A DNA stretch of 64,000 nt from an uncultured Candidatus Saccharibacteria bacterium (lineage in GTDB: Bacteria; Patescibacteriota; Minisyncoccia; Phycocordibacterales; PALSA-1337), in contig CAZBVQ010000002.1 in assembly GCA_964495685.1 (NCBI GenBank), positions 107,284 to 171,283 of the forward strand, read 5' to 3'. A program made the position numbers and the translations under genes. How positions within the stretch are numbered: position 1 is the stretch's first letter; every line of letters begins with the position of its first letter. The notes beneath the pieces are model-generated. The model saw only the letters and a program-made list of their open reading frames with translations. It was not told the DNA's origin and did not search any database. Positions 17,154 to 64,000 of the stretch are shown in pieces.

Positions 17154-17229
17154 AGTTTGTTATTGACTTCCCGAGAGGTTTTTGAGAGAATGGATTTATT
17201 GATGAATCTAATCTCTCCTCGGGGAGATT

Positions 17230-17496: not shown

Positions 17497-17782
17497 TTAA
17501 CTGCTTAATTTTTTGCTGTCGAAGTTCTTCTCGCTCTTTGAGGCGTTTCTGCCTTTCCTTGCTGAGCTGAACATTCTTTCTGAGGCGAATTTCACTTGGT
17601 TGCTTGTGTTCGATATCGACTATGTCGCCTATACGTAGCCGATATAATGCTGTGAGCCACTTACCTTCGAGGATCAAGGCTGGTATGCCTCTCCTTCGGT
17701 ATGTGACTACACGTTTGTTCCTGATGATGATTGTCATTGGTAGCATCTGGCCGTGTGCACCGGCCGATCCCTTTTCGGGCAA
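17423..17782 (-). CDS. AbrB/MazE-family (SpoVT_AbrB swapped-hairpin) DNA-binding protein
   Basis: IPALILEGKWLTALYRLRIGDIVDIEHK matches the AbrB/MazE beta-barrel pattern, followed by a basic coiled-coil tail. The true start is probably an internal Met (MLPMTIII...). Confidence 0.4.
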   Translation of the reverse strand: MPEKGSAGAHGQMLPMTIIIRNKRVVTYRRRGIPALILEGKWLTALYRLRIGDIVDIEHKQPSEIRLRKNVQLSKERQKRLKEREELRQQKIKQLSENIYDNQARNTIAPQGESIEHRG

Positions 17783-17795
17783 TGATTATGTTCAA

Positions 17796-18227
17796 TCATT
17801 CGACAGAATGTCTGTGGCCGAGAGTAATCCGATGTTCCGCAAAGCAATTTCTTCCGAGCTTCTTTTCTAGAAAAGCTCCGATGGCCTTGAGGTTGCCTTT
17901 GGCTCCTATGTGCCAGGTTGTAACCTGCTTCACAAGCGAAGAGTCCTTGTAGTCGTATATGGTGAGAACTGTCGGGTTTCTGCCTACTGACTTGAATGCC
18001 CACTCAGCTCTGACTTTCTGATCTGCTGAGCGCCAGGGACCTTCAACTGTGCAGTCATGAGGTCTACCGAATGCTTTGTGCAATTTGCCGTATGAGATTG
18101 TCATGTTTCCATGACCACTCGTACCCATTACATCCTTCGGATTCGCGGCAATAAACGCATGTTTTGTCTTCATGATTGTTGCAATTGGTTGATAAAATTC
18201 GACCTTTGGCAGACGGTGCGGATACAA
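17796..18227 (-). CDS. Hypothetical protein, the last gene before the phage/host junction
   Basis: 143-aa ORF with no motif recognised. Confidence 0.25.
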   Translation of the reverse strand: MYPHRLPKVEFYQPIATIMKTKHAFIAANPKDVMGTSGHGNMTISYGKLHKAFGRPHDCTVEGPWRSADQKVRAEWAFKSVGRNPTVLTIYDYKDSSLVKQVTTWHIGAKGNLKAIGAFLEKKLGRNCFAEHRITLGHRHSVE

Positions 18228-18228
18228 A

Positions 18229-18262
18229 AAAGCTCCGCGTTTTACGGAGCTTTAAAGTTCGA
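18229..18262 (-). terminator. Rho-independent terminator downstream of gapA, with a bidirectional look
   Basis: AAAAAAGCTCCGCGTTTTACGGAGCTTT. An 8-bp GC-containing stem is flanked by an A-run on one side and a T-run on the other. On the minus strand it reads hairpin followed by TTTTTTG directly after the gapA stop. Confidence 0.6.
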
Positions 18263-18274
18263 ATTTTCTCTTTT

Positions 18275-19306
18275 TTAGATTAACATTCCGGCTTTTATGA
18301 CATGTTGTACGAGGGTATATGTGTACCCCATCTCATTGTCATACCACGCCAATACTTTGACCAAATTACCATCGACGACACGCGTCATCTCGAGATCTGC
18401 AATAGAAGCATGACGATTGCCGACAATGTCATGCGAAACGAGAGGCTCCTCGGTCACGGTGAAGATACCATTCCAGCGAGGCTCCTTGGCGGCCTTCTTG
18501 AGAAGAGTGTTGACCTCTTCAGCGGTAGTATTTTTCTTGGAAATGAAGGTGACATCGACGATAGAACCAGCGACTACTGGCACACGGATAGAGATACCAT
18601 CAAACTTTCCTTGAAGCTGCGTAGCAACTTTGGTCACTGCAATAGCAGCACCAGTCGAAGATGGGACAATATTCTGTGCAGCGGCACGACCTTCACGGAG
18701 GTCTTTCTTTGATGGACCATCGACGATAGCTTGTGAGGCAGTATATGCGTGAACGGTGTTGAGCACTGCCTTTTCGATACCGAGAGTCTCGTCGAGAATG
18801 GCGATGAGTGGTGAGCCGGCATTGGTGGTACATGAAGCATTCGAGGTGATCTGACATCCTTCGAGCTTGTCTTCATTCATACCCATAAGGACTGTGGCGC
18901 TCTGGAATGGAGAGTCGGGTGCATCCTTGGTCGGTGCGGAAACGACTACCCTCTTTGCACCAGCGGTGATATGAGCCTGGGCTTTTTCGGCAGAGGTGAA
19001 TAGGCCGGTTGATTCAACGACAATGTCAATACCCAGGGCCTTCCACGGGAGTTTGGTTGGATCTTTCTCAGAAATAAACTGAACTTCTTGTCCATCGATG
19101 ATGAGGGCAGTCTTCTTTTCATTGACCGAAACATCAAAAGGGCTAACACCATACGCGGTGTCATATTTGAGGAGATAGGCGAAATTCTCGATACTACCGA
19201 GATCGTTGACAGCGACCAACTCCAATTCTTGTCTATCTTTGGCGACCTTGGCGAATGCGCGACCGATACGACCGAAACCGTTGATTGCTACGCGGATTTT
19301 TTTCAT
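18275..19306 (-). CDS. gapA: Glyceraldehyde-3-phosphate dehydrogenase (type I)
   Basis: N-terminal Rossmann motif KIRVAINGFGRIGR and the catalytic region SNASCTTN. The true start is the internal Met (MKKIRVAING) at 19306, not the upstream ORF-track start. Confidence 0.9.
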   Translation of the reverse strand: MKKIRVAINGFGRIGRAFAKVAKDRQELELVAVNDLGSIENFAYLLKYDTAYGVSPFDVSVNEKKTALIIDGQEVQFISEKDPTKLPWKALGIDIVVESTGLFTSAEKAQAHITAGAKRVVVSAPTKDAPDSPFQSATVLMGMNEDKLEGCQITSNASCTTNAGSPLIAILDETLGIEKAVLNTVHAYTASQAIVDGPSKKDLREGRAAAQNIVPSSTGAAIAVTKVATQLQGKFDGISIRVPVVAGSIVDVTFISKKNTTAEEVNTLLKKAAKEPRWNGIFTVTEEPLVSHDIVGNRHASIADLEMTRVVDGNLVKVLAWYDNEMGYTYTLVQHVIKAGMLI

Positions 19307-43287: not shown

Positions 43288-43367
43288 GTGACCTCTCTAG
43301 TGTACCACTTCAGGCGCAATACATCTTGACGGTGTTGTGAATATCCTTTATAGGGTACAGATCACGT

Positions 43368-43457
43368 GCTGGGAGGCTTGGACGATGTTCGGGCCTACGG
43401 TCACAAAGCAGAGCGCGTGGCCGCATTAATATACGCTCACTTTAAAAAGGAGTTTGG
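43368..43457 (+). repeat. Direct repeat copy A (90 bp), about 90% identical to 45130..45219
   Basis: It begins with the 48-bp identical block gctgggaggcttggacgatgttcgggcctacggtcacaaagcagagcg. In one frame it reads LGGLDDVRAYGHKAERVAALIYAHFKKEFG. Confidence 0.8.
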
Positions 43458-43664
43458 GGATTCGTTCGGGGGTTCAGGTACGAAATAATTAAGTCACACA
43501 TATAGGTTAGATTATACACTAATTCTTACAAGGAGGCGGAAGTTGCCGAAAGTGGCAAGCAATTGAGCTAGATTTGAACGACCCCTTGTCTTTTTTCCAC
43601 CTCAGAGATATACTCTTAATTGTCTATCGGTTTACCCATAACTGATAGGGTATAACATCCAAGG

Positions 43665-45065: not shown

Positions 45066-45092
45066 CACTGGGTTCGAATCCAAGTGCCCCGT
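45066..45092 (+). other. tRNA 3' fragment (T-arm with a canonical GGTTCGAATCC loop plus acceptor 3' strand), a candidate attachment-site remnant
   Basis: CTGGG-TTCGAAT-CCAAG-TGCCCCG-T. No matching 5' half lies within 100 nt upstream. Confidence 0.4.
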
Positions 45093-45129: not shown

Positions 45130-45219
45130 GCTGGGAGGCTTGGACGATGTTCGGGCCTACGGTCACAAAGCAGAGCGAGCAGCCGCACTCATATATGCTC
45201 ACTTCAAAAAGGAGTTTGG
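45130..45219 (+). repeat. Direct repeat copy B (90 bp), the partner of 43368..43457
   Basis: It reads ELGGLDDVRAYGHKAERAAALIYAHFKKEFG. Differences from copy A are mostly synonymous third-position changes. Confidence 0.8.
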
Positions 45220-48515: not shown

Positions 48516-49676
48516 ATGCCAATTCATCCCAAACTCAGTTTGATCGAACATTTCCAAAACCTCCCCGATCCGCGCATCAACCGCACCAAGGATCACGACT
48601 TGATTGACCTGCTGGTCATCGCCGTCTGCACGCTGCTCTGCGCCGGTGAGTCCTTCAACGACATGGAGGATTTCGGCCACGCCAAGCACGACTGGTTCAA
48701 AACCTTTTTGCACTTGCGCAACGGAATTCCCAGTCACGACACCTTCAATCGCCTCTTCGCGGCATTGGCCCCGGCGGCATTTCTGGAGTGTTTCGTACGC
48801 TGGACGCAGAGCCTGCGGCAGGCGGTGACACAGGAGATCGTGGCGTTGGACGGCAAGGCGCTGCGCCGGGCCCTGTCCGGCGCGCAAAGTCTCAAGATCG
48901 TGGTGAGCGCGTGGGCGCAGAGCAACCGGCTGGTCTTGGGCCAACTCAAAGTGGACGCCAAAAGCAACGAGATCACCGCCGTGCCCGAGTTGTTGCGCGC
49001 GCTGGAACTGGCCGGCTGCATCGTCACCGTGGATGCCATGGGCTGCCAGAAGCAGATCGCCAAGGAAATCATGGAAGCGGATGCCGACTACGTGCTGGCA
49101 CTCAAAGGCAATCACGAAACGGTGCATCAAGAGGTCAAAAGTTTTCTGGACGCAACACGCGCGGAAGTCCAGCCGCCGCGACCGGTCGGGGCCAAACGGT
49201 CCGCGGCGGCGACGACGTTGGCGCAGTGTCAGACGGTGGAGAAAGACCACGGGCGGATCGAAACGCGGCGCTACTATCAGAGCGCAGCCTTGGAGTGGTT
49301 TGCCGATCGGGCCGAGTGGCCGGGGCTGCAAACGGTGGGGATGGTGGAAGCGATCCGGGAAGTGGGCGCTCAACGGACGGTGGAGCGACGGTATTATTTG
49401 TCGAGCCTGCCGCTGGGGGTGGAAACGTTTGCGCGGGCAGTGCGGGGGCATTGGAGCGTGGAAAACAGCCTGCACTGGGTGCTGGACGTGCAAATGCACG
49501 AAGACCAGAGCCGCGCGCGGGCGGGCTACGCGGCGGAAAATCTGGCGACGTTACGGCGGCTGGCGTTAAACCTATTGAAACGCGAGACGACCAAACGGCG
49601 CGGCATCCGGGGCAAGCAACTCAATGCCAGCTGGGACCATGCCTATCTGCTCCGCCTCCTCGACGGCGAAATTTAG
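48516..49676 (+). mobile_element. ISAs1-family (H-repeat-associated, DDE) transposase gene. The IS boundaries are not resolved
   Basis: N-terminal region RINRTKDHDLIDLLVIAVCTLLCAGESFNDMEDFG together with the C-terminal HWSVENSLHWVLDVQMHEDQSRARAGYAAENLATLRRLALNLLK block is diagnostic of ISAs1/IS1358-type transposases. GC is about 62% by eye. Two long overlapping ORFs in other frames are high-GC artefacts. Confidence 0.85.
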
Positions 49677-50704: not shown

Positions 50705-51055
50705 ATGGAAAACGCGCGACCGCTTCCGAACGCAGAAGATTTGCAACGTCTGGTGGAACGCTTTCATCGGGCACGATGGGTTGGCGGCGTCAGTTTTGTT
50801 TCTCCCGAGCCATTCAAAATGGAATTCACCCTTCTTGGGCAACGGCGAATGCGACAGCTATTCGAGGCGCTCAAAGGTGCCACTGCGGAGAATTTTCCAG
50901 ACGGATCGGATCTTTGCGCAACCGACGCAGGCACAGCCATTATCAATCGATTTGCAGATGCCATGTCGGAGTTGTATCCGCCAGCGCTCTCGCCAGGGGA
51001 AAAGGAAACGCTTGTCGGTTTGACTATTGCATTTGGTAAGGAACGGCGCTGGTAG
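50705..51055 (+). CDS. Hypothetical protein (116 aa), first gene of a four-gene operon
   Basis: ORF overlapping the next gene. Confidence 0.35.
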   Translation: MENARPLPNAEDLQRLVERFHRARWVGGVSFVSPEPFKMEFTLLGQRRMRQLFEALKGATAENFPDGSDLCATDAGTAIINRFADAMSELYPPALSPGEKETLVGLTIAFGKERRW

Positions 51056-51554
51056 CTGCACCCAAGGCCCTATGACAATTCAAGAATATGCGGAACCAGA
51101 TTTACACGCTGTGGGTGAACGTATGCCGGCGATCAGCCCATCGTTTCACCTATGGGGTCACACATTTTCGCCGAAACGGGTGACCGAGGAAACCGGCGTG
51201 ATCTTTGCAAAAGCCAATGAGCCAGGCGAAATCAATGTGGCCGGACCTTTCCAGGGACGATCTCTTGATTATGGGCCGGGCTACGGCGCCGGAATTATCC
51301 GGGCACCCCAAACCATCTCCCGTAACGAACGGCTCAACTGGCTGCTTGAGAACGTCCTTGCAGGTTACACTCGCAAATTTCGAAAGGAGTATGGAATTGT
51401 TGAGGAGGTTCTATATTTCACAGCTCATTTTGCATTCAAGCAGCCCTGCTGTCTGATATTGCCGAATTGGCTGATACGATCAATCCCCACTGACGTTCCC
51501 GTCGTCATCACGTGCATTCAAGAAAACGATCCGCCAGACTCGTTCGCTGCCTAG
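51027..51554 (+). CDS. Hypothetical protein. The start is probably the internal Met MTIQEYAEP at 51072
   Basis: Second ORF of the operon. Confidence 0.35.
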   Translation: MHLVRNGAGSCTQGPMTIQEYAEPDLHAVGERMPAISPSFHLWGHTFSPKRVTEETGVIFAKANEPGEINVAGPFQGRSLDYGPGYGAGIIRAPQTISRNERLNWLLENVLAGYTRKFRKEYGIVEEVLYFTAHFAFKQPCCLILPNWLIRSIPTDVPVVITCIQENDPPDSFAA

Positions 51555-51557
51555 CCA

Positions 51558-51926
51558 ATGAATGATTATCGCGATTTCCTTCCATTCCTGAAAAAGGAGC
51601 TTTCTTCTCTTGAGCGGGAGCCGTTAGCCCTGTCGGCCGACGCCATTCTTGACGCGCTGAGCAGCAATGGTTCGGAGGCAGCTGATACCGCAGTCCGACA
51701 GTATGCTGCGACTCTTATCTGGCCCGCCATGTCGGATCGCGTTCGATTCGAGCTTTGCCTTCGCTTGCGAGTGGCCATCTGGTGGATTGAAAGCCTCAGC
51801 GACACATCAAGTGATGGCGAAGAATTGGGCGTCTTCTTGACGGACACGATGATCGACTATTGGCGAGATGTGGGGCGGACTGACTGGATTTGGAACCATT
51901 TTGTAAACCAAGACGTTTCGATCTAG
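51558..51926 (+). CDS. Hypothetical protein (122 aa)
   Basis: Third ORF, 4 nt after the previous stop. Confidence 0.35.
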   Translation: MNDYRDFLPFLKKELSSLEREPLALSADAILDALSSNGSEAADTAVRQYAATLIWPAMSDRVRFELCLRLRVAIWWIESLSDTSSDGEELGVFLTDTMIDYWRDVGRTDWIWNHFVNQDVSI

Positions 51927-51940
51927 CGAGCGAAAGTGAG

Positions 51941-52624
51941 ATGAACAAAAGAGCACAAGGGGTGTTGCCGACAGACGAGCAGATGCTCAAACTGAAAACT
52001 GAACTCAATTTTCTTTTCTGGACGACAGATGTCCCCGAGGTCCCGAGAGATTTTCCAGTCGCAGTCCAATTTCAGACGACACCGGAGCCAGCTAAAATCA
52101 ATATGCAGTGCACGAGCCATGCGATCGTAACCGCGGCAATTTTCATGGCCCTGAGTTTTGGCGTGACGACACGCGCAGGCATGGCCTTCGTATTGGACAC
52201 AAGCGCGGATGGCAATCCAGATAATGATTTCCTCAATCAGATCGGAAAACACTGGTGGATAACATTGGATGACCACGGCCTCGTGGATTTGAGTTTGAGT
52301 GCGGAAACCGAAAATCCACTGGTTTACTGCAATCGAAGTGTTAGCGGGAATTGGCGTGTTGCCTTCGGTAAAAACCAACAAGAGCTAAACGTCTTTCTAA
52401 AAGCACGACAGCGCGGCTGCTTTTATTTAACGGCTAACAAACAGAAAGCTACAGCGAGCGCGCTCACACAATCATTGGCACAGCCGGTTGCGCCCGCAAA
52501 GAAACACGGGATTCACATTCCCTATGCAAACATCGTTCGCCACTGTGAGGAACTACTTTCGGGCGCTGGGCAATCCCTGACCAGCACAGCCCAGGTCGAG
52601 GCGTGGCGTAAGCTCGCTTCCTAG
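51941..52624 (+). CDS. Hypothetical protein (about 228 aa, start MNKRAQGVL)
   Basis: Fourth ORF. The ORF-track start at 51890 would overlap the previous gene. An internal hydrophobic segment (AIVTAAIFMALSFGVTT) is present. Confidence 0.35.
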   Translation: MNKRAQGVLPTDEQMLKLKTELNFLFWTTDVPEVPRDFPVAVQFQTTPEPAKINMQCTSHAIVTAAIFMALSFGVTTRAGMAFVLDTSADGNPDNDFLNQIGKHWWITLDDHGLVDLSLSAETENPLVYCNRSVSGNWRVAFGKNQQELNVFLKARQRGCFYLTANKQKATASALTQSLAQPVAPAKKHGIHIPYANIVRHCEELLSGAGQSLTSTAQVEAWRKLAS

Positions 52625-52714
52625 TACCCCTACATCACGGGCTACATACATGGTCCGTAGGGGCGAGTGCCCGTCACGATTGACTGGCACGGCTTAACCG
52701 CCGCACCACTAGCT

Positions 52715-52844
52715 CCCCAACGTGTCGTCGGCTACCGCCCGACTTAACGCTTTTTCCCTTCGGGCTAACCGGGTGCAGTCCACTAGCCGATGTCCTTTAC
52801 CCAAAAGCGTTAAGTCGGCCATTATCCGCCGACACGTTGGGGGA
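52715..52844. repeat. 130-nt nested inverted repeat with outer 13-bp arms ccccaacgtgtcg/cgacacgttgggg, inner arms of about 15 bp cgacttaacgcttttt/aaaagcgttaagtcg, and a 47-nt core carrying a CCC-TTC-GGG hairpin. It is a candidate oriT or structured RNA
   Basis: Read directly. It lies in a 430-bp GC-rich ORF-poor gap upstream of the T4CP-like ATPase. Additional local stems are at 52636..52674 and 52890..52920. Confidence 0.5.
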
Positions 52845-53057
52845 CTGGTTTTAAGAGAAGGTGCTACCGCACCGACCACCATTTCGCTAACGCGACCGCT
52901 TCGCCTCGAAGGGCGGAGGTGACGACGGTCCCCACGACCGCACGAGTCTGGAAAAAGCGTTGCCGCGACTGCGGCACCTGAAAGGCAGTCGCGCCGACTG
53001 GCGCGTCAATTTGCTGCCCACCTTGGCAAGTTTTGGTGTCTATGCCTCTTTTCCCAA

Positions 53058-54509
53058 TTGGTATATCGTGGGTTTCCCTATTCGGATTTCACAACCAGTC
53101 GCCATTACCTCGCCGGCTTGCCCCAAACCGCAGTTGCCGACGTTTGCAGACAAGAGGGCTTGCGGCAGGGCCACATGAGAAGTCTAAACGACACGGGGAC
53201 TTTTGGTGTGGCAGGGGTGGCGACTGGTTTTGGCACCATGAATGACCACACCATCATAATCGGCGAGCGGCACGGCTGGGGTGATCCTCAGCGCTTTGGC
53301 ATATCTGCGGAGGATCAGCGCCAGCATATTTATATCATTGGAAAGACTGGCTCCGGCAAAACCACCTTGCTGCGCAATCTGATTTTGCAGCACATCGCAC
53401 TTGGGCACGGTGTTGGCCTGATTGATCCTCACGGTGATCTGGCCGAGGAACTGTTAACCCACATTCCACCGCATCGAGCGGATCATCTTGTGTATTTCAA
53501 TCCGGGTGATCTTGAGTTTCCGATTGGCCTCAACCTGCTTGCCGATGTTCTAGCCGATGACCGGCACCTTGTTGCTTCCGGCATCGTGGGTGCATTCAAA
53601 GGCATCTGGCGCGACTCATGGGGACCAAGACTGGAATATATCCTCTACAATACTGTGTCAGCATTGCTTGATTGTCGGAATGAGACGTTGCTGGGCGTCA
53701 ATCGGATGCTCACGGACGACACCTTTCGGGCCAAGGTCGTTCGCCAGATCAAAGACCCCTTCATCCGGGCGTTTTGGGCGGAGGAGTACGGCGGCTACGA
53801 CGAGCGTTTCAAGCGTGAGGCTATTGCGCCGATTCAAAACAAGGTCGGGCAGTTCCTGTTGAATCCAGTCGTGCGGAATATTCTCGGGCAGGTCAAAACT
53901 AAGGTGAAGATTCCCTTCATCATGGACAACCAGCGATTGTTCATCGCGAACCTTTCCAAAGGACGCCTTGGTCACGACAAAGCCAATCTACTCGGTTCCT
54001 TGCTGACGACCCAATTCGAGCTTGGCGCCATGGCGCGGTCGAATCGTCCTGAATCAGAGCGCCGTGACTTTTACCTGTTCATTGATGAGTTCCAGAATTT
54101 CTCAACCGACGCGTTTGCTTCCATCTTGGCGGAAGCTCGCAAGTATCGTTTATGCCTCACGCTCTCACATCAATACATTGACCAGCTACCACTGCCGATC
54201 CGGCAGGCCGTGTTTGGTAACGTGGGAACCCTTATCGCCTTTCGCATTGGGAACACCGATGCCGAGGTGATGGAAAAGGAGTTCGGCAAAACGTTTCCAG
54301 CGAGCGCCATCGCCGATCTTGACCGATATGACGCAATGGTGAAGTTGCTTCAAGACGGATCGAACTGGGAACCGTTCCGGGCGAAGATGCTGCCACCATT
54401 GGAGAATCGCATTGGCCGCAAGGACAAACTCATCGCCCTGTCACGAGAACGATTTGCCACGCCACGCGCCATCGTTGATGACAAACTGAATCGGTGGATA
54501 CAGGTATGA
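53058..54509 (+). CDS. TraD/TrwB-type (type IV coupling protein-like, FtsK/HerA superfamily) P-loop ATPase without an N-terminal TM anchor
   Basis: Walker A IIGKTGSGKTT, Walker B FYLFIDEFQNF and the sensor-like LTLSHQYIDQ. The ORF-track start is a TTG. Alternative ATG starts at 53175 and 53238 are equally plausible. Confidence 0.55.
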   Translation: MVYRGFPYSDFTTSRHYLAGLPQTAVADVCRQEGLRQGHMRSLNDTGTFGVAGVATGFGTMNDHTIIIGERHGWGDPQRFGISAEDQRQHIYIIGKTGSGKTTLLRNLILQHIALGHGVGLIDPHGDLAEELLTHIPPHRADHLVYFNPGDLEFPIGLNLLADVLADDRHLVASGIVGAFKGIWRDSWGPRLEYILYNTVSALLDCRNETLLGVNRMLTDDTFRAKVVRQIKDPFIRAFWAEEYGGYDERFKREAIAPIQNKVGQFLLNPVVRNILGQVKTKVKIPFIMDNQRLFIANLSKGRLGHDKANLLGSLLTTQFELGAMARSNRPESERRDFYLFIDEFQNFSTDAFASILAEARKYRLCLTLSHQYIDQLPLPIRQAVFGNVGTLIAFRIGNTDAEVMEKEFGKTFPASAIADLDRYDAMVKLLQDGSNWEPFRAKMLPPLENRIGRKDKLIALSRERFATPRAIVDDKLNRWIQV

Positions 54510-54688
54510 ACATTCCGTTGTCACTTGAAACAGATCCCTTAAATAGAGCCGGAGGTCCGACGATGCTTGCAACAGTCCCGGAATCTGAAGCTGAAGTGAA
54601 GACCTTGTACGTCTGGCGTTGGAGCATCGTTTTTAACTATCAGTTGACTTTAACGACGCATTTTATAATGTGCCGAAGCGATGTCTGA
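54494..54688 (+). CDS. Small ORF (64 aa, GTG start) bridging the ATPase and jetA with overlaps at both ends
   Basis: It overlaps the ATPase stop by 16 nt and the jetA start by 8 nt. It may be a spurious ORF in the other frame. Confidence 0.25.
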   Translation: MDTGMNIPLSLETDPLNRAGGPTMLATVPESEAEVKTLYVWRWSIVFNYQLTLTTHFIMCRSDV

Positions 54689-56105
54689 AGCATTTTGGCG
54701 CGGGGCGGTAAATCGGAGGGCGAAGAATCTCGCCTTGATGAAGCCCTTTTTCGAACTGGAGGATAACAAGGGTCTCCACTTGCAGTTTGACCTGAAGCCA
54801 TACGACATGCATTTGCTCTGCTCTGTGCTGATGGAGTCCATCATCGCTGAGATGGGGGGACTGATAGCCGGCGCACAATACAATGCCGTTTTACGCGAAC
54901 TCTCGAAAGTGGTTCTCAAAGTCAATCCCTCAGCTTCCGCCAGCGAAATAGACCGGATCGCAAGTCATATTATTGGCCATCTCACAAACGAGCGCGGTCG
55001 CAGCCATTTTGAAGCATCATATCAGACGATTCGTGACGATGGCAGTGTCGAGACACTGACCCATCCATTTCGACTCCTTGAGCAGCGGCTTTCACCTGAT
55101 GACGATTTAGTTTATATCGCCACCTCTGAGGCCATCCACATTTATTTGAGTGGTCTGGGTCAAGACCTGGAGGCAGAACAAGCAGCGAATGACGCCGTCT
55201 TAGACCATTATCTTCGGCGTGGCAAGCACCGCGAAGCCGGAGAAGCGGCCGACATGGCACGTAAACGCAGCATTGAGCTGCGTACCCGTCTGCGCGGCTG
55301 GCTCATTGCAGCAGAACGTAGTTTCGACGAAATCCACTATGCGCAAAGCGTCCTTCAGGAGCTTGCGCGGATGCTCCAGCATGTGGAAGATCGGGGTCAC
55401 GTCGAACAACGTCAAATCGAAGAGATTCAAGCCCGCGCACTTCAGTTGCCCCCAGGTGACGAGGGACGTAACACACTGGTTGGGGCCCGTAAAGCAATTG
55501 AGGTGTCTGCCGATGAGCACGTCCGCTTGCTGGCTGACTTGCAATGTTGCAGCCGCACGCTTCTGGATTGGCAATCGCACCACCGGTTTCGACGCGGTGA
55601 AAGTCCGGCGTTACCGGATCCGATAAACGAATTTCTTGAGCCGGTACTGCGACTTACCAGCGGGGAGTTCCTAAATTTCCTTCCGATGCTTTGGCCATTT
55701 GCGGTACCTCCTGCACTTCCAGTGCTGCCGGATTTGCCAGCATTGCTGGATTCCCTGTTGGCCGATACACGTGAGCGGCCAGAGATATCTGAACTCGATC
55801 CAATTGCGGAATCCTATGAGGAGATGGCGGCTCCAAAGCGATTTACTCCCGAGACATGTAAGGCGGTGGAGGAGTTGCTCGCCGGACTGGGCGGAAAGTT
55901 TTCCCTTTCTCAAGCACTGGGGGCCGTTGCAGAAAGATTTTCTTTGGACAGCCCTGAACTCGCCTATGTTGCTGTTCTTGTGCCGCAATGGTTCGAGCAC
56001 GAGCCAGGTGACGGCAAAGTGGCCCATCCCAAAGGATGCGAATTTGAAGCGGCTGGATTTTTTGGAGACGACCTCGCAGTGACAGCAGAAGGTGCCATAG
56101 TATGA
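54681..56105 (+). CDS. jetA: Wadjet JetA (MksF-like kleisin-type subunit)
   Basis: 474 aa, the first gene of a four-gene operon whose third gene is an SMC-like ATPase and whose fourth is a Toprim-type protein. Size and position match JetA. A 4-nt ATGA overlap with the next gene indicates translational coupling. No catalytic motif is expected in this subunit. Confidence 0.5.
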   Translation: MSEAFWRGAVNRRAKNLALMKPFFELEDNKGLHLQFDLKPYDMHLLCSVLMESIIAEMGGLIAGAQYNAVLRELSKVVLKVNPSASASEIDRIASHIIGHLTNERGRSHFEASYQTIRDDGSVETLTHPFRLLEQRLSPDDDLVYIATSEAIHIYLSGLGQDLEAEQAANDAVLDHYLRRGKHREAGEAADMARKRSIELRTRLRGWLIAAERSFDEIHYAQSVLQELARMLQHVEDRGHVEQRQIEEIQARALQLPPGDEGRNTLVGARKAIEVSADEHVRLLADLQCCSRTLLDWQSHHRFRRGESPALPDPINEFLEPVLRLTSGEFLNFLPMLWPFAVPPALPVLPDLPALLDSLLADTRERPEISELDPIAESYEEMAAPKRFTPETCKAVEELLAGLGGKFSLSQALGAVAERFSLDSPELAYVAVLVPQWFEHEPGDGKVAHPKGCEFEAAGFFGDDLAVTAEGAIV

Positions 56106-56830
56106 CATCGGACCAGGTCAACGCTATTTACGAAGCCTCACGCCTTCTTCGGATCGCGCTTAACCCACGCGAAACGGCCGCTCGCAGCGCTGAATATCAG
56201 CAACTTCTCCAACGATTCCATACGGATCCGGTTTTCCGCGACACCACTCGCCAGATTGCTCGCGGTCTTGAACTCCAGATATTCGAACTCGCCCGTGACC
56301 TTGGTCTGGCGATAGTTAATACCGCGGGTGGCCCCTACGCACCTACATTGAATGATTTCCGCACTTCGATGCGTCCCCGCGACCGCATTATTTACGGTCT
56401 GCTTCTAGCCATGTTGACTGCTTACGTATATCCCAATCGGCGAGCGCTAGGTGAACTTGATGACAGTTCGGTCGTTTCCATCGAGTTGCGCGGCTTAGTG
56501 GAATGGGCATCGAGCACAAGTCGGCAGATGAAGTCTGCTGCCAATATTGAGGATGTAGCCAATGAAGACATGCGTGCTGGGTTTGAAGCCATCGCCATAC
56601 TTGAGCCATTCGGGGATGGGCAAAACACCTTACAGCATCGTTTCCGCTTTACGTTGCAGTGGCTTGCCGATCGCGGACTGTTCCTCTATCGAGAGGAGGG
56701 AGGAAAGGAGCTGTGGGTAGCCCGCCCTCACTTCCGTGTCCAAGCCCGCCACCTCATGCAAAGCACGCATGACCGCTTGATTGAATATTTGGGTGCCCGC
56801 GCGGAAGATCCCCGGAACACCTCAACCTAA
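56102..56830 (+). CDS. jetB: Wadjet JetB (MksE-like subunit)
   Basis: 242 aa, second in the operon. Size and order match JetB/MksE. Confidence 0.5.
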   Translation: MTSDQVNAIYEASRLLRIALNPRETAARSAEYQQLLQRFHTDPVFRDTTRQIARGLELQIFELARDLGLAIVNTAGGPYAPTLNDFRTSMRPRDRIIYGLLLAMLTAYVYPNRRALGELDDSSVVSIELRGLVEWASSTSRQMKSAANIEDVANEDMRAGFEAIAILEPFGDGQNTLQHRFRFTLQWLADRGLFLYREEGGKELWVARPHFRVQARHLMQSTHDRLIEYLGARAEDPRNTST

Positions 56831-56836
56831 TCTGTC

Positions 56837-59800
56837 ATGGCCAAACTTCTTCGAGTTCATCTTGCCGGCGTTGGACATCCAGATGCCCGCTTCCACCCTT
56901 TGTCGTTACGTCTTGATCAGAAAGGGTTGCCGATGAATTCCGTGGTAAACCTTCGCAATGCTGGCGGCAAGACATCGCTCCTGTCCTTGATCTACGCTGT
57001 TCTCCTGCCAGGCAAGCATGATTTTCTGGGGAAGGTGAACAACAGCAACCGTACACTTGATGAAAACTTCAACCCAGGAAAACTGGGTGTCGTCGCGCTG
57101 GAAATGGAAAGCCAAGCGGGCCGATTCAGTCTGATCTTGGCGTGGGTGCGCCGGGAACGGGAGGACCCGCCCACACTCCTTTCGTTTCGTTCCGGTCGCG
57201 ATGGAATCGAGTTTGATACGCTGCCGATTCAAGGTTTGAGTTCGGCACCTGTGGCAACGCTGTCAGAACTTTTGAGCTGGCTCAATGATCGGCATAGCCG
57301 ATCACCAGGCAACGTAGATCTGTATGTCGCCTCCAACTTTCGCGAATGGCAACTTCATCTCAAAACGCAGCGGGGAGTTGATTCGTACCTTTACCGAAGT
57401 CATTTGCAAATGAACAAGGCGGAAGGCGCAGTGGACGAGGAATTTAAGTTCACAAAAACCAACGACTTCATTCGGCGTTATCTTGAATTCGCCGTCGAAC
57501 CGCCCACGATGGGTCGTGAAGCTGAAGATCCGGTAACGGCCAACCTCAATGAGCACCGCCACGCGCTCATGAAGCAGCCGCACTACCGGAAAGAGCAGGA
57601 ATTCATCCAGGAAATGGTGCCTCACCTACAGGAGTTGGATGGCCATGCGCAACGGAAACGAAACGCGGATTCGGAGCGAAATGCAGCCGTTTCTGAACTT
57701 CAACAGCATGCGGATGGGGTTTTGTTTCTGGAGTCAAAGTTTCGCGCGGACGAGAAAACATACGCGACCGACTATGTCACCAAAAAGGGAGAACGGGACG
57801 AATTGGTGCGAAAACGCGATAATGCGAAGCGTCACGCTGCTGGATATGATCGCCGGGGCAAGGAACTAAAAATCGACGAAGCTGAAAAGGCCCGGGCAGA
57901 TGCCCAGAATAAAGCCCAACAATGCCTTGAGCGGTTTCACTTGGTTTCCGCAGCAATGCTGTGGCGTGACGTTCGGGGCGCCAAGGTTATGCTTGCGGCA
58001 TTGGTGGAACAACGCGAGCAATTGGACCAGGAGCTTCGTCCGGAGTTGGAGGAGGTTCAGCGGCGCGCTCTCCGTCTAAGTGCCGCGTTTGAAGAAGCAA
58101 TTGAAAATGCTCAATTCGCCTTGGAGGAAGTTAACGAGCAGAATTTGCAGTTGGGAACAACTTTAAGCCAGCAGCGTAAGGAATTAAAAGAATTGGAAGC
58201 CAAATGGTCCACGCTCACCAATGAACTTAGCAAGATCAACGGGCAGATCGATTTGACGAACAAGGCACGTGCACGCCTTGTATCTGACAGAATCGTACAA
58301 CCGCGCGAGGAAGTATCCGATGCAGAGGCTCGGCTAGGCACTGAAATTCAAAAGTTTGACGAAACGGCCAAATCCCTCCGCAATGATGCCATTAACGCCC
58401 GTGGCCGGGCCGGGATTCATCGTGCGGAAGCCGAACGACTTTCGAAACTGGCTGAGCAGTCCAAGAATATTGCGGCACAAGCCCGCTCCGATATCGGTCG
58501 GTTCGAGAAAAACCGGGACGCTTGTGCCGACCTTGAAGCGGTGCAGGAAATTCTTGAAGGTGGCCCATTCGACCCGTTCAACCCGGGCGTTGTCGATGCG
58601 TTGCAAGGGAGGGAAAAAGGATACCGTCACCAGCTCCTTGCTTTGGGAATTGAAAGGGCCGAAGACAAACGTCTGATTGATCATTATGATGCCGATAAGC
58701 ATCCGCTTTTCCCAGTCCCGCGCGAGGTTGAAAACCTCCTCGTGCGATTACGCGACGAGCAAAAAATACGTGGGATTCTCACGGCTTACGAATGGTTAAG
58801 CGCCAACTTGCCAGTGGATCAGGCGCAAGTCCGTCTGCAATCGGATCCAGCCACCTATAGCGGTTTGGTCGCGAATACCCTGGCGGACCTGGAAGCCGCC
58901 ACACTGGCCTTTTCAAAGTTCCCACTTTCTCGCCCCGTCAAAATTACATTGTCCAGCACGCTGGCGGCTTTCACGAGCAATTCAACCGCCACCGTAATCC
59001 CGGAACGGGCCGGTCTTTTCAACTCTCAAGCAGCAACAGTCGAACGCGGACAAATTCTCGAACACCAAAGTCAACTGGATCGTCAAGAAATCGAACTCGC
59101 TCAAATGGCCGAGGCTTTTGGAACCGCGGCCAATCAGGTCGGGGGTTTCCAGAAAGAGTTCGTCGTTGACTGGATCGAAGAAAGACGACGTTCGTTGGCT
59201 GAGAATGAAGCACTGACGTTTCAACACAACGCTTCTGCTGCGGCAGAACAGTCATCGGTCAACAGTGCTGATCAGGAAGCGCAGCGAGCAGACGCAGAGG
59301 CTTCTAGTTGCGAGACAAAAGCGGGCAGCGCCAGAACACAACTTGCTCAAGTCATAGACTTCCGGAATAACTTTGGTAATCAACTGGGCGAATGGCTCAA
59401 GCGACAAAAAGAACTGGCCGATCAAATTGCTGCAAACCAAGCTGAGCGAGGCTTGGTGGACGCACGCATTCGCGATCTGGAATCTCACGTTCCTCAAATG
59501 GCGGAAAGAGCGCAGAAAGCCGGAGTCCGGGTGATTGAACTGCGCTTGGCAAAGAGCAACGCAAAGTTAAGCACTTATCTTCCGCCGGATCCTCCTCCGG
59601 TGGCTCACGGCGATATCACCACGGAAGAACTCCCTTTTACCACCGCCCGCGATACTTACGAAAACAAAGCCCGGAAGGGGCCTTTGGAAACCGCGATCAG
59701 TTCGGCCCAACAGAGGCTTACAAACTGTGAAGGAGCTTTTGCTCGCGATGGCCACGGGAAAACATCTGAGCACGTCGCTGCTCTCTCCGCGGCTCCAGAC

Positions 59801-61180
59801 CTGGACATACAGGTGGAAACGGCGAAAAGGGATGACATCAATGCCAAAACCACACTCGCCGTTGCGCAAAAAGAATTGTCTCTGGCCGAGAGGGAACGTC
59901 CCAAGCCGTTGGGTGTCAATGAGCGTGCTGACCTTGATCCAGACCTGCCTGAACCCGTGACTGCGGCGGAGGCAATACAGATTAAGGACGAGAAGCTGCA
60001 GATCATGAGTGATTTTCATGATCAAGCAGAGGCCTTGCGAGATATCGTGAGCGAGCTGGAAAACAAGCAGCGGGAGGCCAAGTCGGTTGCCGATCAGTAT
60101 CGGAACATGGCGGACTTAACTTCCCCTGCGCGAGCTGCCGAGCCAAAGGAATATCAGGGATTAGTTGGCAATCCTGACAGAGATCGTGACCACATCAGGT
60201 CTGTGAAGCGGCGCTATGAAGATGCCAAAAAACTTCACGAGGAGCTTGCCGCAAAGATGGAACGCATCCACGACAATCACATCGAGATACTGGTGAAGCA
60301 CGAAAAATGGGATCGCTTTACGGTTGATATTCGTGACCGTTTGCGTCGGTTCACCCGTGCTGATTATGAGGCAAATACGATTCAGCTGATTCAGGATTGC
60401 AATGAACGCAAGGCTGGGTTGGAGGCGAAGCTGCAGGAGATCGAAAAAGTCAGGGGTGTGCTAATTGACCAGCTCTACAATCGTGCGAATGAGGCACTGC
60501 GTTCACTTGAGCACGCAGCCCGCCTAAGTCGGATGCCGGAAGGAGTTGGTGCGTGGTCTGGCCAGCCATTTCTGAAAGTACATGTTCCGGCCCGAGCTCC
60601 CCAGGCCGAGCGCCGCGTTCTATTAAGTCGCTTGATGGATTCGTGGATGTCGCCCCAAAAGAAGGACATGACCATCCCCCGCGGAGCCGAGCTCGCTTAT
60701 GAGTGTCTGATCGCCGTCATGAATCAACGGGAAATCGATATCGAAATCCTCAAGCCTGAAGCTTTTGATCCATTGGTTTGCAATTACCAGCCGGTGACAA
60801 AGCTTGCATCCTTTTCCGGTGGCCAGCGCGTGACGGCAGCCATCCTCCTATATTGCGTCATTGTTCGGGTTCGATCTGACCAGGGCGATATTTTGACCGA
60901 CTGTGGTTTCTTGATGCTCGACAATCCTTTTGGCAAGGCCAGTCATTTCCCCTTGGTGGAACTGCAATTGAAGATGGCTAACGTAATGGGAGTGCAGTTG
61001 ATTTACATGACCGGGATCAATGATCTGGAAGCCCTAGCGTCGTTCCCATTACGTTTGCGTCTCCGTAACAGCGCGCGTAATACGGCAAATGGCGAGCGCG
61101 TGGTCCAGCACGAATTACATACGGTCGAAGCAGTCCGCCTTGGTGAATCCGCCCCAAATGGAAACGCAACTCGTTCTTGA
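56837..61180 (+). CDS. jetC: Wadjet JetC, an SMC/MukB-like ABC-type ATPase (1447 aa)
   Basis: N-terminal Walker A LRNAGGKTSLLSLIY, a central coiled coil of about 1000 aa rich in E/A/R/Q/L, and a C-terminal ABC signature FSGGQRVTAAILLY with Walker B/D-loop FLMLDNPFGKAS. Confidence 0.75.
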   Translation: MAKLLRVHLAGVGHPDARFHPLSLRLDQKGLPMNSVVNLRNAGGKTSLLSLIYAVLLPGKHDFLGKVNNSNRTLDENFNPGKLGVVALEMESQAGRFSLILAWVRREREDPPTLLSFRSGRDGIEFDTLPIQGLSSAPVATLSELLSWLNDRHSRSPGNVDLYVASNFREWQLHLKTQRGVDSYLYRSHLQMNKAEGAVDEEFKFTKTNDFIRRYLEFAVEPPTMGREAEDPVTANLNEHRHALMKQPHYRKEQEFIQEMVPHLQELDGHAQRKRNADSERNAAVSELQQHADGVLFLESKFRADEKTYATDYVTKKGERDELVRKRDNAKRHAAGYDRRGKELKIDEAEKARADAQNKAQQCLERFHLVSAAMLWRDVRGAKVMLAALVEQREQLDQELRPELEEVQRRALRLSAAFEEAIENAQFALEEVNEQNLQLGTTLSQQRKELKELEAKWSTLTNELSKINGQIDLTNKARARLVSDRIVQPREEVSDAEARLGTEIQKFDETAKSLRNDAINARGRAGIHRAEAERLSKLAEQSKNIAAQARSDIGRFEKNRDACADLEAVQEILEGGPFDPFNPGVVDALQGREKGYRHQLLALGIERAEDKRLIDHYDADKHPLFPVPREVENLLVRLRDEQKIRGILTAYEWLSANLPVDQAQVRLQSDPATYSGLVANTLADLEAATLAFSKFPLSRPVKITLSSTLAAFTSNSTATVIPERAGLFNSQAATVERGQILEHQSQLDRQEIELAQMAEAFGTAANQVGGFQKEFVVDWIEERRRSLAENEALTFQHNASAAAEQSSVNSADQEAQRADAEASSCETKAGSARTQLAQVIDFRNNFGNQLGEWLKRQKELADQIAANQAERGLVDARIRDLESHVPQMAERAQKAGVRVIELRLAKSNAKLSTYLPPDPPPVAHGDITTEELPFTTARDTYENKARKGPLETAISSAQQRLTNCEGAFARDGHGKTSEHVAALSAAPDLDIQVETAKRDDINAKTTLAVAQKELSLAERERPKPLGVNERADLDPDLPEPVTAAEAIQIKDEKLQIMSDFHDQAEALRDIVSELENKQREAKSVADQYRNMADLTSPARAAEPKEYQGLVGNPDRDRDHIRSVKRRYEDAKKLHEELAAKMERIHDNHIEILVKHEKWDRFTVDIRDRLRRFTRADYEANTIQLIQDCNERKAGLEAKLQEIEKVRGVLIDQLYNRANEALRSLEHAARLSRMPEGVGAWSGQPFLKVHVPARAPQAERRVLLSRLMDSWMSPQKKDMTIPRGAELAYECLIAVMNQREIDIEILKPEAFDPLVCNYQPVTKLASFSGGQRVTAAILLYCVIVRVRSDQGDILTDCGFLMLDNPFGKASHFPLVELQLKMANVMGVQLIYMTGINDLEALASFPLRLRLRNSARNTANGERVVQHELHTVEAVRLGESAPNGNATRS

Positions 61181-62183
61181 AGCGGTTCAAGCCGCTATGC
61201 CGTCGGGGCGCACGCAGACCGATGTATTGTCTGTTTTTAATGCTCTTGCTGAACGCATGCCTCGATTGAAAACCGATCAGAACCGATGGGAGACTTTCGT
61301 CGATCTCCTAGGCGCCGCCGAAACGGAGGGACTCATTGTCCTGCCTTCACGCCTCGGGGCTGGATGGAACCAGGAGGTTATGCCAGCTCGACCCCAGTGG
61401 ATAAGACTTGCATTAACCAGAGAGCCTAGGGAAGTGTTTAACCATCGCGGGTTTCCGTGGAACTCCGCTCTCTCATTCCTGGCCGGAGAGAGAAGTCTGC
61501 CAACAGGAATTCGTGATGCCGCCGTCTCGATCCAGCAGTTCTTCGCCACGAATGGTCTGTCCCGACCGTTCGTTCCCGTCAAAGAACGGTCATTCGCAAT
61601 TTTTGGTGAGGAGAAACGGCTTGGCGCGCTCCAACACTCCGAGATTCTGTTCGGTCCTGGAAAATTGTCGCTCGAACAATTGCGCTGCTATGTGGTCGAG
61701 CCGACGCCCGTGACGGAACGATTTGATCAGGGTCACGGGATCATAGTTTTGGAAAACGAAGCCACCTTCGACTCATTTTGCCGGCTTTGTCGGCACACAC
61801 CCGCCTACCAACTCGTGGTCTATGGCCGCGGCCATGAAATCCAGAAATGCGCCGCTTATCTCAACCGCGAAGCCAGCCGATTGGGTGTTACAGAAATGTT
61901 TTACTTCGGCGACATTGACCGACGCGGCCTGGAAATCCCCTATCAACTGGCACATGACCCAGCCACCAAGGTGAAAGTCATACCCTTGCTTTTGGCTTAT
62001 AAGTTCCTCCTACGCCGTACCGCCTCTGCACCCTGTCATGTTTCTGAGGCTTGCCTGTGGTTACCCGAGCCATTAGCCACTTTGGCTGCAACCGTAATAG
62101 CTGAAGCAGGTCGCATCCCGCAAGAAGCATTCGGTTGGGAAGACATTTCGACAACTTATGGCATCGATCCTTTTATTACATAA
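61158..62183 (+). CDS. jetD: Wadjet JetD (Toprim/topoisomerase-VI-A-like nuclease subunit)
   Basis: The C-terminal region IIVLENEATFDSF ... VVYGRGHE ... MFYFGDIDRRGLEI matches the JetD/MksG Toprim-like layout (E ... DxD). The start is uncertain (61089, 61158 or 61197). The 61158 start would overlap the jetC stop by 23 nt. Confidence 0.6.
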   Translation: METQLVLEAVQAAMPSGRTQTDVLSVFNALAERMPRLKTDQNRWETFVDLLGAAETEGLIVLPSRLGAGWNQEVMPARPQWIRLALTREPREVFNHRGFPWNSALSFLAGERSLPTGIRDAAVSIQQFFATNGLSRPFVPVKERSFAIFGEEKRLGALQHSEILFGPGKLSLEQLRCYVVEPTPVTERFDQGHGIIVLENEATFDSFCRLCRHTPAYQLVVYGRGHEIQKCAAYLNREASRLGVTEMFYFGDIDRRGLEIPYQLAHDPATKVKVIPLLLAYKFLLRRTASAPCHVSEACLWLPEPLATLAATVIAEAGRIPQEAFGWEDISTTYGIDPFIT

Positions 62184-62992
62184 TGGGCAATCGAACAAAC
62201 ACTGACAATTGGACCGCTCGTGAGCGTTTGGTGCATATTGAACGCCTTGCTTATTGGCGCGGTTGGCTACGGCGAGGGGATCTTTGTGCTCGGTTTGAAA
62301 TATCCATATCTCAAGCCTCGGCGGATCTTGCGGCCTACATGCGATTGAATCCTGGGGCCCTCCATTATGACAGCAGCGCCAAACAATACGTTGGGGCCCC
62401 TAACATGTCTTGCCGACTGGTGACGCCGACTCTCGAAGATGCATTGCCCTTCATCGCTGTATCCAAACTCGTCGCATTTTCTGAGCATGACCAAATTGTC
62501 CGCATTGATCTGCCCCATCGGTGTGTTCCGCCACGCGCGGCACGCGACATTATACGGGCTATTGCCAATAAGTTGTCTTTGGAAATTTATTATTTCTCGA
62601 TTCACTCCGCGACCGAACAGTGGCGCCGGATTTCCCCCCATGCGCTCGCCCACGATGGCTATCGCTGGCATGTAAGAGCGTGGTGTCACCAAGGTAATGA
62701 ATATAAGGATTTTGTCCTTGGCCGAATCGGTAAAACTCGTTCCCTTGCAAGTGAAGGTGTGTCGCCCAAGCCTGATGAGGACTGGATAACATGGGTCACA
62801 TTGCATTTGCGGCCATACCGACGATTGTCATCAGTACAACGAAAAGCGATTGAACACGACTATGCGATGAGCGGTGGAATTACCGCTCTTAAAGTTCGGA
62901 AGGCAATGCTGATTTACACACTTTCCTATCTCCGGCTCACTCCAGAGATGGCAGAATTGGCGCGCCATTTGGAGGTTGTTAAATTTGACTGA
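62183..62992 (+). CDS. WYL-domain transcriptional regulator (wHTH plus WYL, BrxR/CapW-like)
   Basis: N-terminal wHTH (WTARERLVHIERLAYWRGWLRRGDLCARFEISISQASADLAAY) and WYL core HDGYRWHVRAWCHQGNEYKDFVLGRI. Its ATG overlaps the jetD stop (TAATG). Confidence 0.6.
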   Translation: MGNRTNTDNWTARERLVHIERLAYWRGWLRRGDLCARFEISISQASADLAAYMRLNPGALHYDSSAKQYVGAPNMSCRLVTPTLEDALPFIAVSKLVAFSEHDQIVRIDLPHRCVPPRAARDIIRAIANKLSLEIYYFSIHSATEQWRRISPHALAHDGYRWHVRAWCHQGNEYKDFVLGRIGKTRSLASEGVSPKPDEDWITWVTLHLRPYRRLSSVQRKAIEHDYAMSGGITALKVRKAMLIYTLSYLRLTPEMAELARHLEVVKFD

Positions 62993-63065
62993 CAAGCCTG
63001 TGTTCACTCATGACTCACCCGCCCGGCCAAGCTGGGTGTTGGTCAATCGTTTCCAGTACGTCGGG

Positions 63066-63551
63066 CTATCTCTCCCATCGTCCGCAATACGCCTCGTTGA
63101 AATGCTTCACCAGTTTCCAATATTTTTCAGGGTCAGTTTCCTTCATGGTCAAAAGCTCCGCCAGTTTGGCTGAAGCTCCAATCATGAGTTTCTTCATCTC
63201 GTCATCCGTGATGCGCGAAAGCTCCGGCTTTTCCAGAAGTTCTGAGTATTTGCCGGCGTGCAGTTCTTCAATGTAACCATTTCGAAATGCACAGCACGTC
63301 AGAGCATTGGCTTCTTCCCTTTTTGTCCACGAGCGTTCCATATCCATGATGGACGAAATTTTAGCAGAAATAATCAACGCCGGCAATGTGTGCTGCCAGC
63401 AAAACGACACCGCTAACGAATCAGTGAGTCCACTGTTTTCTTGAGCGAATATGAAATCAGTTCGAGGAAGCTTGGGAACTTGCCTCAAGCGGCAAACCCT
63501 GACGCCTACTGTCTCCGCTTTGCATCCGCCATGATGGTGCGATGCAATCAC
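63066..63551 (-). CDS. Hypothetical protein. The start is probably the internal Met MDMERSW, giving about 92 aa
   Basis: ORF with an acidic helical C-terminus. Confidence 0.25.
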   Translation of the reverse strand: MIASHHHGGCKAETVGVRVCRLRQVPKLPRTDFIFAQENSGLTDSLAVSFCWQHTLPALIISAKISSIMDMERSWTKREEANALTCCAFRNGYIEELHAGKYSELLEKPELSRITDDEMKKLMIGASAKLAELLTMKETDPEKYWKLVKHFNEAYCGRWER

Positions 63552-63590
63552 GCCTTCCCCGCTTCAATCGCGCTTCCACGGTTGCTCCCA

Positions 63591-64000
63591 TGCAACTCAC
63601 GGAGCGCGACCGCGAAATCATCCGGCTCGTCCACCGGCATCGTTTTCTCCGTTCCCCACATATCGTGGCGCTCATTGGCGGCAGTCAACAGCAGGTCTTG
63701 CGAAGATTGCATTTGCTCTACCATCACGGTTTTTTGGAGCGGCCCCGCACACAGATCGACTCATATTACAAAATCGGCTCCCGCCCCATTGCCTACGGGT
63801 TAGGAAACAAAGGTGGGATGCTTTTGCGGCAGGAGTTTGGTGTTAATCCCCGTGAAATATCTTGGAGTGAAAAGAACAGTTCCGTTGGCCGGACATTCCT
63901 TGAGCACGCGCTTTTTGTTTCGGATGTGATGGTCGCGATTGAACTCGCCTGCCGGGCGCGCGGGATTCGCCTTGTGGCCGAGCATGAGCTTGCCATTCCG
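63591..64000 (+). CDS. Replication-relaxation family protein, N-terminal part. The gene runs off the window end
   Basis: My own translation from ATG 63591 reads MQLTERDREIIRLVHRHRFLRSPHIVALIGGSQQQVLRRLHLLYHHGFLERPRTQIDSYYKIGSRP..., which is the characteristic N-terminus of plasmid/ICE replication-relaxation proteins. It is not in the ORF track because no stop lies in the window. Confidence 0.6.

Follow-up and report, generated by a model that had tools for sequence, protein, structure and literature searches.

Relaxases of the MOBC class correspond to the Pfam family PF13814 (PMC5357655, Table 1). They are PD-(D/E)XK-like and are found on integrative and conjugative elements (ICEs) and on mobilizable plasmids (PMC12857230). 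CloDF13, a MOBC1 plasmid, brings a type IV coupling protein of its own, MobB (PMC7431656). Defence hotspots in mobile islands are an established pattern (for example, PMC12629846 and PMC10250203). The present analysis concerns a stretch of 64,000 nucleotides (nt) from contig CAZBVQ010000002.1 of assembly GCA_964495685.1, referred to here as the window, in which a gene for a P-loop ATPase ends shortly before jetA, the first gene of a type III Wadjet defence operon. Comparison with 80 related genome loci carrying the ATPase suggests that it belongs to a MOBC-type integrative element and is a TrwB/TraD-like ATPase for coupling or DNA translocation, situated beside a hotspot for defence cargo. The probability of this reading is put at about 0.8. 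The coordinates of the features discussed are collected in Table 1.

The longest open frame of the ATPase gene runs from a TTG codon at 53058 to 54509 on the forward strand and comprises 483 amino acids (aa). An earlier reading of the window made without database searches, referred to here as the sequence-only reading, had given a length of about 480 aa, which holds for this longest frame but not for the conserved start. The alignment places the true start at the ATG at 53238, for a predicted protein of 423 aa, because over 33 loci ACCATGAA is conserved at 53235-53242, while the region upstream of it is conserved in structure and has insertions and deletions that are not multiples of three. 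Positions 53058-53237 are a structured, non-coding 5′ leader. A protein-coding interpretation of the leader was rejected, as tblastn matches to its open reading frames (ORFs) change frame and the indels do not keep the reading phase. The motifs Walker A (GKTGSGKTT), Walker B (FIDEFQNF) and LTLSHQ are present, with Walker A starting at residue 35 of the conserved protein and about 35 residues before it. No transmembrane (TM) segment was found when the whole 483-aa ORF was scanned (Kyte-Doolittle maximum of 1.22 in 19-residue windows). The ORF, the motifs and the hydropathy thus bear out the earlier description of a P-loop ATPase without a TM segment upstream of jetA. Judged as a type IV coupling protein, it has the motifs and the nucleotide-binding domain (NBD) and lacks the N-terminal TM segment.

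Profile searches, which the sequence-only reading had proposed, gave a divided answer. The Pfam models TrwB_AAD_bind (42.9 bits against a cut-off of 20.5, 3.9e-11, with partial model coverage in two stretches) and DUF87/HerA (1.1e-6) match above their cut-offs, whereas the curated TraD equivalogs remain far under theirs. The best match in the PDB is TrwB of R388 (E = 3e-4). PADLOC models for mad8 (4.6e-16) and, in part, HerA also match, both at the level of the domain only. Close homologues number more than 8,000, and the top 120 are 83-100% identical (83-91% excluding the window's own protein); records with a named organism are mostly from Verrucomicrobiota. At E<=1e-3 the wider family comprises 21,164 representatives at 50% identity, many of them 600-1,200 aa long and extended on either side of the ATPase domain. 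The window ATPase keeps every family-invariant residue and differs from its relatives at about 60, 28 and 215 sites in codon positions 1, 2 and 3, a pattern that indicates an intact gene under purifying selection.

The neighbourhood of the ATPase in other genomes is that of a mobile element. Nucleotide conservation between the window and its relatives sets in abruptly near 52630 and breaks off precisely with the ATPase stop codon at 54509. In 57 of the 80 loci, ORF clustering places a same-strand Replic_Relax (PF13814) gene 3′ of the ATPase. The representative of this cluster matches PF13814 at 6.4e-22, and the relaxase is called as a protein of 284-300 aa with PF13814 in loci L081, L082 and L168. 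Beyond it, again on the same strand, lie genes for a DnaG-like primase, DUF6166, small proteins (one of them N6-methyltransferase-like), RadC and an ATP-dependent ligase. The order in the source organism is ATPase, Wadjet with brxR, Replic_Relax, primase and ArdC-N/RadC, and the relaxase and primase are intact in the source contig. A PF13814 gene within the same module marks it as a predicted MOBC-type mobilisation module. The ATPase is very probably a backbone gene of an integrative mobile element that is widespread in Verrucomicrobiota.

A large serine recombinase gene lies 5′ of the leader in 14 loci; the cluster upstream of the leader that was taken at one point for a large primase is in fact this recombinase. 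Farther downstream, many relatives encode a polytopic membrane protein and then a second TrwB-like ATPase of about 1,000 aa, which is TM-less and 34% identical to the window ATPase. Two metagenome loci continue after the second ATPase with a serine recombinase gene and, beyond it, housekeeping genes. The membrane protein and second ATPase occupy 17797-21260 in L038, 52-3135 in L088 and 8-2056 in L097. The element as a whole would be ordered as a structured non-coding element, the TM-less ATPase, a variable slot, an XRE regulator, the Replic_Relax relaxase and the DnaG-like primase. DUF6166 and small genes would come next, followed by ArdC/RadC. In many relatives, a distal module of polytopic membrane protein, second TrwB-like ATPase of about 1,000 aa and serine recombinase would complete it. 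Homology and gene neighbourhood suggest a role of the window ATPase in DNA transfer. It would act as a hexameric, NTP-driven coupling or translocating motor that receives the relaxase-processed DNA of the element, resembling MobB of CloDF13.

The ATPase is preceded by a conserved, covarying leader of about 600 nt, consisting of a structured element named block 1 and an RNA helix. No Rfam match was found for the whole window at the gathering score or for 52400-54800 at E<=5. Searches with nhmmer recover block 1 as a single copy in 74 of the 80 loci, always on the + strand and 5′ of the ATPase, and in four of the six loci lacking it the sequence breaks off no more than 170 nt from the ATPase start. 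Block 1 contains an inverted repeat of about 130 nt, with arms at ~52711-52755 and 52803-52849, plus five to seven small hairpins whose loops repeat the pattern GC-TAnC-GC. Its 49 predicted pairs are paired in 98.4% of alignment cells, as opposed to 35-49% when slid, and it has 88 double-change cells as opposed to 8-19 when slid, a value reached in 0 of 500 shuffles. The z-score of the single-stranded DNA fold is -5.5. G.U pairs are as rare as A.C mismatches and the stem does not vary in its outer 12 bp, which is the pattern expected of a palindrome or hairpin acting at the DNA level. Because of its position beside the transfer genes, block 1 is the leading candidate for the origin of transfer (oriT) of the element. 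In plasmid pAD1 the oriT is found next to the relaxase gene and is made up of a large inverted repeat with short direct repeats, a layout that block 1 resembles. In L073 and L079, block 1 is located 5′ of a relaxase-ATPase pair. Eight further loci (L004, L039, L049, L062, L065, L066, L067 and L068) carry 1.5-6.3 kb of extra DNA between block 1 and the ATPase, which suggests a second slot inside the leader.

The second part of the leader is a long-range helix around the purine-rich ribosome-binding region that directly precedes the ATG at 53238. Over the 33 loci it is 95% paired, with 8 pairs showing compensatory changes and one invariant U.G pair (RNAalifold). It has many G.U and few A.C cells, and this excess points to a structure of the + strand RNA. 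The RNA fold of the window's own leader has an energy of -72.6 kcal/mol (z = -3.7). An extended -10-like motif, TGnTAnnAT, follows block 1 on its 3′ side in many loci (alignment columns 229-237). While the helix itself is seen in the alignment, its effect would be regulatory: by sequestering the ribosome-binding site, it would hold expression of the ATPase down.

The probable cargo slot opens directly after the ATPase stop codon and holds Wadjet in this genome and QatABCD, IetAS, restriction-modification (R-M) genes or almost nothing in others. Between the ATPase stop and the relaxase start lie -6 to 7,884 nt in the 57 loci and about 9.1 kb in the window. Slots bounded by the relaxase contain complete QatABCD (L055), IetAS (L051), a type II R-M system (L039) and methyltransferases (L056), and these systems are mostly on the opposite strand. 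The first three lie at 5468-10199, 11281-14761 and 15306-18736 of their loci, respectively. A pool of 104 proteins encoded 3′ of the ATPase also matches models for Ssp/Dnd, Hma, ThsB, PglX, TIR, KAP NTPase and double-GTPase proteins. It is highly likely that Wadjet is one of many interchangeable defence cargoes behind the ATPase.

The Wadjet genes themselves tell the same story from the other side. No homologue of JetA-D or of the WYL protein was found within 10 kb of the ATPase in any of the 80 loci (tblastn with the window proteins). The four closest Wadjet loci, with JetA 89, 87, 72 and 70% identical to that of the window, all keep jetABCD. A brxR-like gene follows jetD in three of them (L084, L087 and the P0129 locus); in the fourth, L083, the contig runs out directly behind jetD, too early to show whether it has one. 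Neither the ATPase nor the small ORF between it and jetA is present in any of the four, whose upstream genes are unrelated. A 448-aa gene 5′ of jetA in L084 was considered as an ATPase analogue and rejected, since it has no similarity. Nucleotide homology of L083 and L084 to the window starts at 54621/54622, 60 nt before the jetA ATG, and that of L084 ends at 62993, at the brxR stop. These boundaries delimit jetABCD and brxR as a portable, apparently self-contained cassette of five genes at 54621-62993. The 60-nt region at its front could be an operator and promoter for this BrxR-like WYL gene-bearing cassette; its TTGACT-N14-TATAAT receives no score in a simple sigma-70 scan because the spacer is 14 nt. 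The same region lies at 7941-8000 in L083 and 7942-8000 in L084, with the core GTTGACTTTAACGACG.

Several observations count against the reading of the ATPase as a working transfer component. Curated NCBIfam equivalogs of TraD/VirD4 are missed by a wide margin (SXT_TraD, 47.2 against 366 bits; TraD_Ftype, 26.9 against 521; conju_CD1115, 34.9 against 250). The AlphaFold2 model, built on a low-diversity alignment of 22 sequences, was too poor and was left unused (predicted local distance difference test score, pLDDT, 44.6). Coupling proteins have an all-alpha domain inserted in the NBD; residues 106-222 of the window ATPase are helical in the predicted secondary structure, but the model is unusable for them as well. 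TrwB, MobB and PcfC are non-functional in conjugation when their TM domain is removed (PMC7431656). Neither VirB4 nor other genes of a type IV secretion system (T4SS) were seen in the approximately 20 kb of backbone inspected, so that the term "coupling protein" presumes a helper T4SS or an unusual pore. A simple terminator scan found no + strand terminator in 54510-54680, and read-through co-transcription from the ATPase into jetA is possible but not required. The window has no intact serine recombinase, only two 3′-end fragments of about 95 nt, and the module of membrane protein, second ATPase and recombinase was not found in the 10 kb beyond brxR. Because of these last two points, the copy of the element in this genome may be partly decayed and immobile. 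They would also suit an ATPase that is a non-functional leftover of a decayed element, intact by chance or because the decay is recent, and without a role here, as would the insertion sequence (IS) at 48516-49676; the left part of the element in the window does look decayed. Nevertheless, the ATPase ORF is of full length with all family-invariant residues, its divergence is biased to third positions, and the structured leader, relaxase and primase are intact. Variable DNA between RadC and the distal module occurs in other relatives too, and absence of the module within 4 kb is no proof of loss. A leftover without function is unlikely. The sequence-only reading had offered a coupling-protein remnant of the delivering mobile element as one possibility; the coupling-protein part agrees with a backbone gene beside a MOBC-type relaxase, whereas "remnant" does not agree with an intact ORF that has kept its invariant residues. 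It is very unlikely that the ATPase is a HerA/mad8-like defence component, acting with the four ORFs at 50705-52624 or as a stand-alone effector. The PADLOC mad8 and partial HerA matches, the DUF87/HerA match above cut-off and the defence-rich neighbourhood would speak for such a component, but the four ORFs occur in none of the 80 loci, the best Pfam and PDB matches are of TrwB type, and the invariant partners are the relaxase, primase and RadC rather than nucleases or other mad genes. The conserved neighbours are not those that mark HerA-type or MADS systems (NurA, a Sir2 or DUF4297 nuclease, or other mad genes).

The other proposal of the sequence-only reading was that the ATPase is an unrecognised Wadjet accessory, perhaps a sensor or loader, co-expressed with jetA and translationally coupled to it through a 64-aa ORF. 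The arrangement in this one genome invites such a view. Both genes are on the same strand, the ATPase stop at 54509 and the jetA start at 54681 are separated by 171 nt as had been described to within a nucleotide, and the gap has no + strand terminator-like hairpin. The GTG-initiated ORF of 64 aa (54494..54688) is likewise present, sharing 16 nt with the ATPase gene and 8 nt with jetA; the gene caller starts it instead at the ATG at 54506, which shortens it to 60 aa and makes its start overlap the ATPase stop as ATGA. In comparison with other genomes, however, the linkage dissolves. The ATPase and jetABCD show no recurrent co-localisation in independent genomes: jet homologues accompany the ATPase in 0 of 80 loci, and the same upstream gene, which had been suggested as a check, is absent from all four of the closest Wadjet loci. 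The cassette homology begins inside the small ORF, and in relatives the slot is filled by other, unrelated defence systems, which are often in the opposite orientation. The small ORF has only itself as a match among 5.8 billion protein clusters, is absent from the 80 ATPase loci (tblastn) and matches no family in Pfam, PADLOC or NCBIfam. Junction DNA unique to this genome provides its first ~38 codons, and the last ~22 come from the conserved region upstream of jetA; in L083 and L084 its frame is closed by stops 37 nt and 1 nt before jetA. It is judged to be a chance frame where unique junction DNA meets the cassette, and not a gene, and the proposed translational link is not supported. The comparative data largely refute a Wadjet accessory role, which is extremely improbable for this ATPase.

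Table 1. Features of the window, with positions counted from its first nucleotide.
Feature	Coordinates	Strand	Basis or remark
Second direct copy of the recombinase 3′ fragment	43363-43458		~95 nt
3′-terminal fragment of large serine recombinase gene	45130..45219	+	tblastn to residues 561-605 of the L008 recombinase; blastn to L003, L008, L016, L056
IS with DDE_Tnp_1 transposase and DDE_Tnp_1_assoc	48516-49676		
Block 1, conserved structured non-coding element	52632..52928	+	candidate oriT
Long-range helix of the 5′ leader, ~20 bp	53085..53236 (arms ~53085-53108 and 53213-53236)	+	RNAalifold, 33 loci
TM-less TrwB/TraD/HerA-superfamily P-loop ATPase	53238..54509	+	423 aa from the conserved ATG
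Orphan small ORF	54506..54688	+	60 aa from ATG 54506, or 64 aa from GTG 54494
Conserved 60-nt region travelling with the Wadjet cassette	54621..54680	+	TTGACT-N14-TATAAT, short inverted repeats
jetA (type III Wadjet)	54681..56105	+	PADLOC JetA3, 1.5e-62
jetB	56102..56830	+	position only; 242 aa between jetA and jetC, in all relatives
jetC	56837..61180	+	PADLOC JetC3, 1.2e-127
jetD	61158..62183	+	341 aa as called; PADLOC JetD3, 1e-52; Pfam JetD_C
BrxR-like WYL regulator	62183..62992	+	WHD_BrxR, WYL and BrxR_CTD domains; fifth cassette gene
Replic_Relax (PF13814, MOBC-type) relaxase	63590..64000 (cut by window end)	+	tblastn, 63% identity to the cluster-2 representative

The remaining features of the window can be described briefly. 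The gene in the jetB position has no match to a Pfam or PADLOC model, and the longest ORF for jetD begins at 61089. Between brxR and the relaxase there is a minus-strand ORF at 63066-63347 (93 aa as called), with nucleotide matches in the slots of L056 and L048. Just 5′ of the leader, four tightly spaced co-directional ORFs of 116, 160-175, 122 and 227-244 aa occupy 50705-52624. They have no Pfam match and were not found in the 80 loci by tblastn, and the last of them (51890-52624) has no PADLOC or NCBIfam match; possibly they are cargo of unknown type in a second slot. Genes of 464, 1258 and 368 aa downstream in L073 were considered as another type of Wadjet and rejected, being those of a major facilitator superfamily transporter, an enolase-like protein and a ThuA/DUF7133/cytochrome c protein. 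Toward the left of the window, a motif resembling a tRNA T-loop, GGTTCGAATCC, is found at ~45072-45082; ARAGORN detects no tRNA or tmRNA in the window. The GC content steps from ~47-50% to ~53-57% at about 48 kb, at the DDE_Tnp_1 IS. Past ArdC/RadC, the source contig continues with glycosyltransferase, radical-SAM and tRNA-synthetase-like genes within the 10 kb beyond brxR.

A broader proposal can be made tentatively, and it is somewhat more apt to need revision than to hold in full. It describes a very widespread verrucomicrobial family of integrative elements, marked by the 1.9-kb unit of leader and ATPase. Each would combine a MOBC relaxase with a pair of soluble TrwB-like ATPases and a single polytopic membrane protein, while lacking any recognisable T4SS, and might move DNA by a non-canonical, minimal apparatus. 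The leader would hold two new cis-elements not represented in Rfam: an array of inverted repeat and hairpins of ~300 nt, acting as oriT at the DNA level, and an RNA switch controlling translation of the ATPase. The slots flanking the unit on either side would be general hotspots for defence cargo. To our knowledge this element family has not been described, and a literature search gave nothing specific.

The analysis removes a tempting but wrong candidate from the accessory factors of Wadjet and illustrates how adjacency in a single genome can mislead. Since Qat, IetAS or R-M systems occupy the position behind it in relatives, the ATPase with its leader is a useful landmark when Verrucomicrobiota genomes are mined for defence cargo; we know of almost no experimental work on the biology of mobile elements in this phylum. 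The leader also offers two concrete cis-elements, a candidate oriT and a candidate translational gate. Wadjet cuts small circular DNA. It is thus a puzzle how an element that may itself excise as a small circle would tolerate Wadjet as cargo.

Among described systems, the MobB/MobC pair of CloDF13 is close in arrangement, as both have a MOBC-family relaxase beside their own TrwB/TraG-like ATPase and no visible T4SS of their own (PMC5357655, PMC7431656, PMC12857230). The TraX module of pAD1 can be named alongside it as a similar combination of relaxase and ATPase. The N-terminal TM domain of MobB is essential (PMC7431656), whereas the window ATPase has none. The window element also differs from CloDF13 and pAD1 in being chromosomal, associated with a serine recombinase and found in Verrucomicrobiota, and elements of its type carry a second, larger paralogous ATPase behind a polytopic membrane protein. 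With TrwB of R388 and VirD4/TraD the window ATPase shares the FtsK/HerA-superfamily NBD with Walker A and B; those proteins have a TM anchor and a cognate T4SS, which was not seen in the backbone inspected here. The Wadjet operon is the standard jetA3-jetB-jetC3-jetD3 of canonical type III systems, of which the ATPase is not part, and the cassette of this clade differs in having a BrxR-like WYL gene as its fifth gene (three of four relatives). The hotspots of SXT/R391 ICEs, P2/P4 and Pseudomonas islands likewise hold varying defence systems at a fixed position between backbone genes. In comparison with these, the present hotspot is set in a MOBC backbone of Verrucomicrobiota, and its slot starts at the stop codon of the ATPase.

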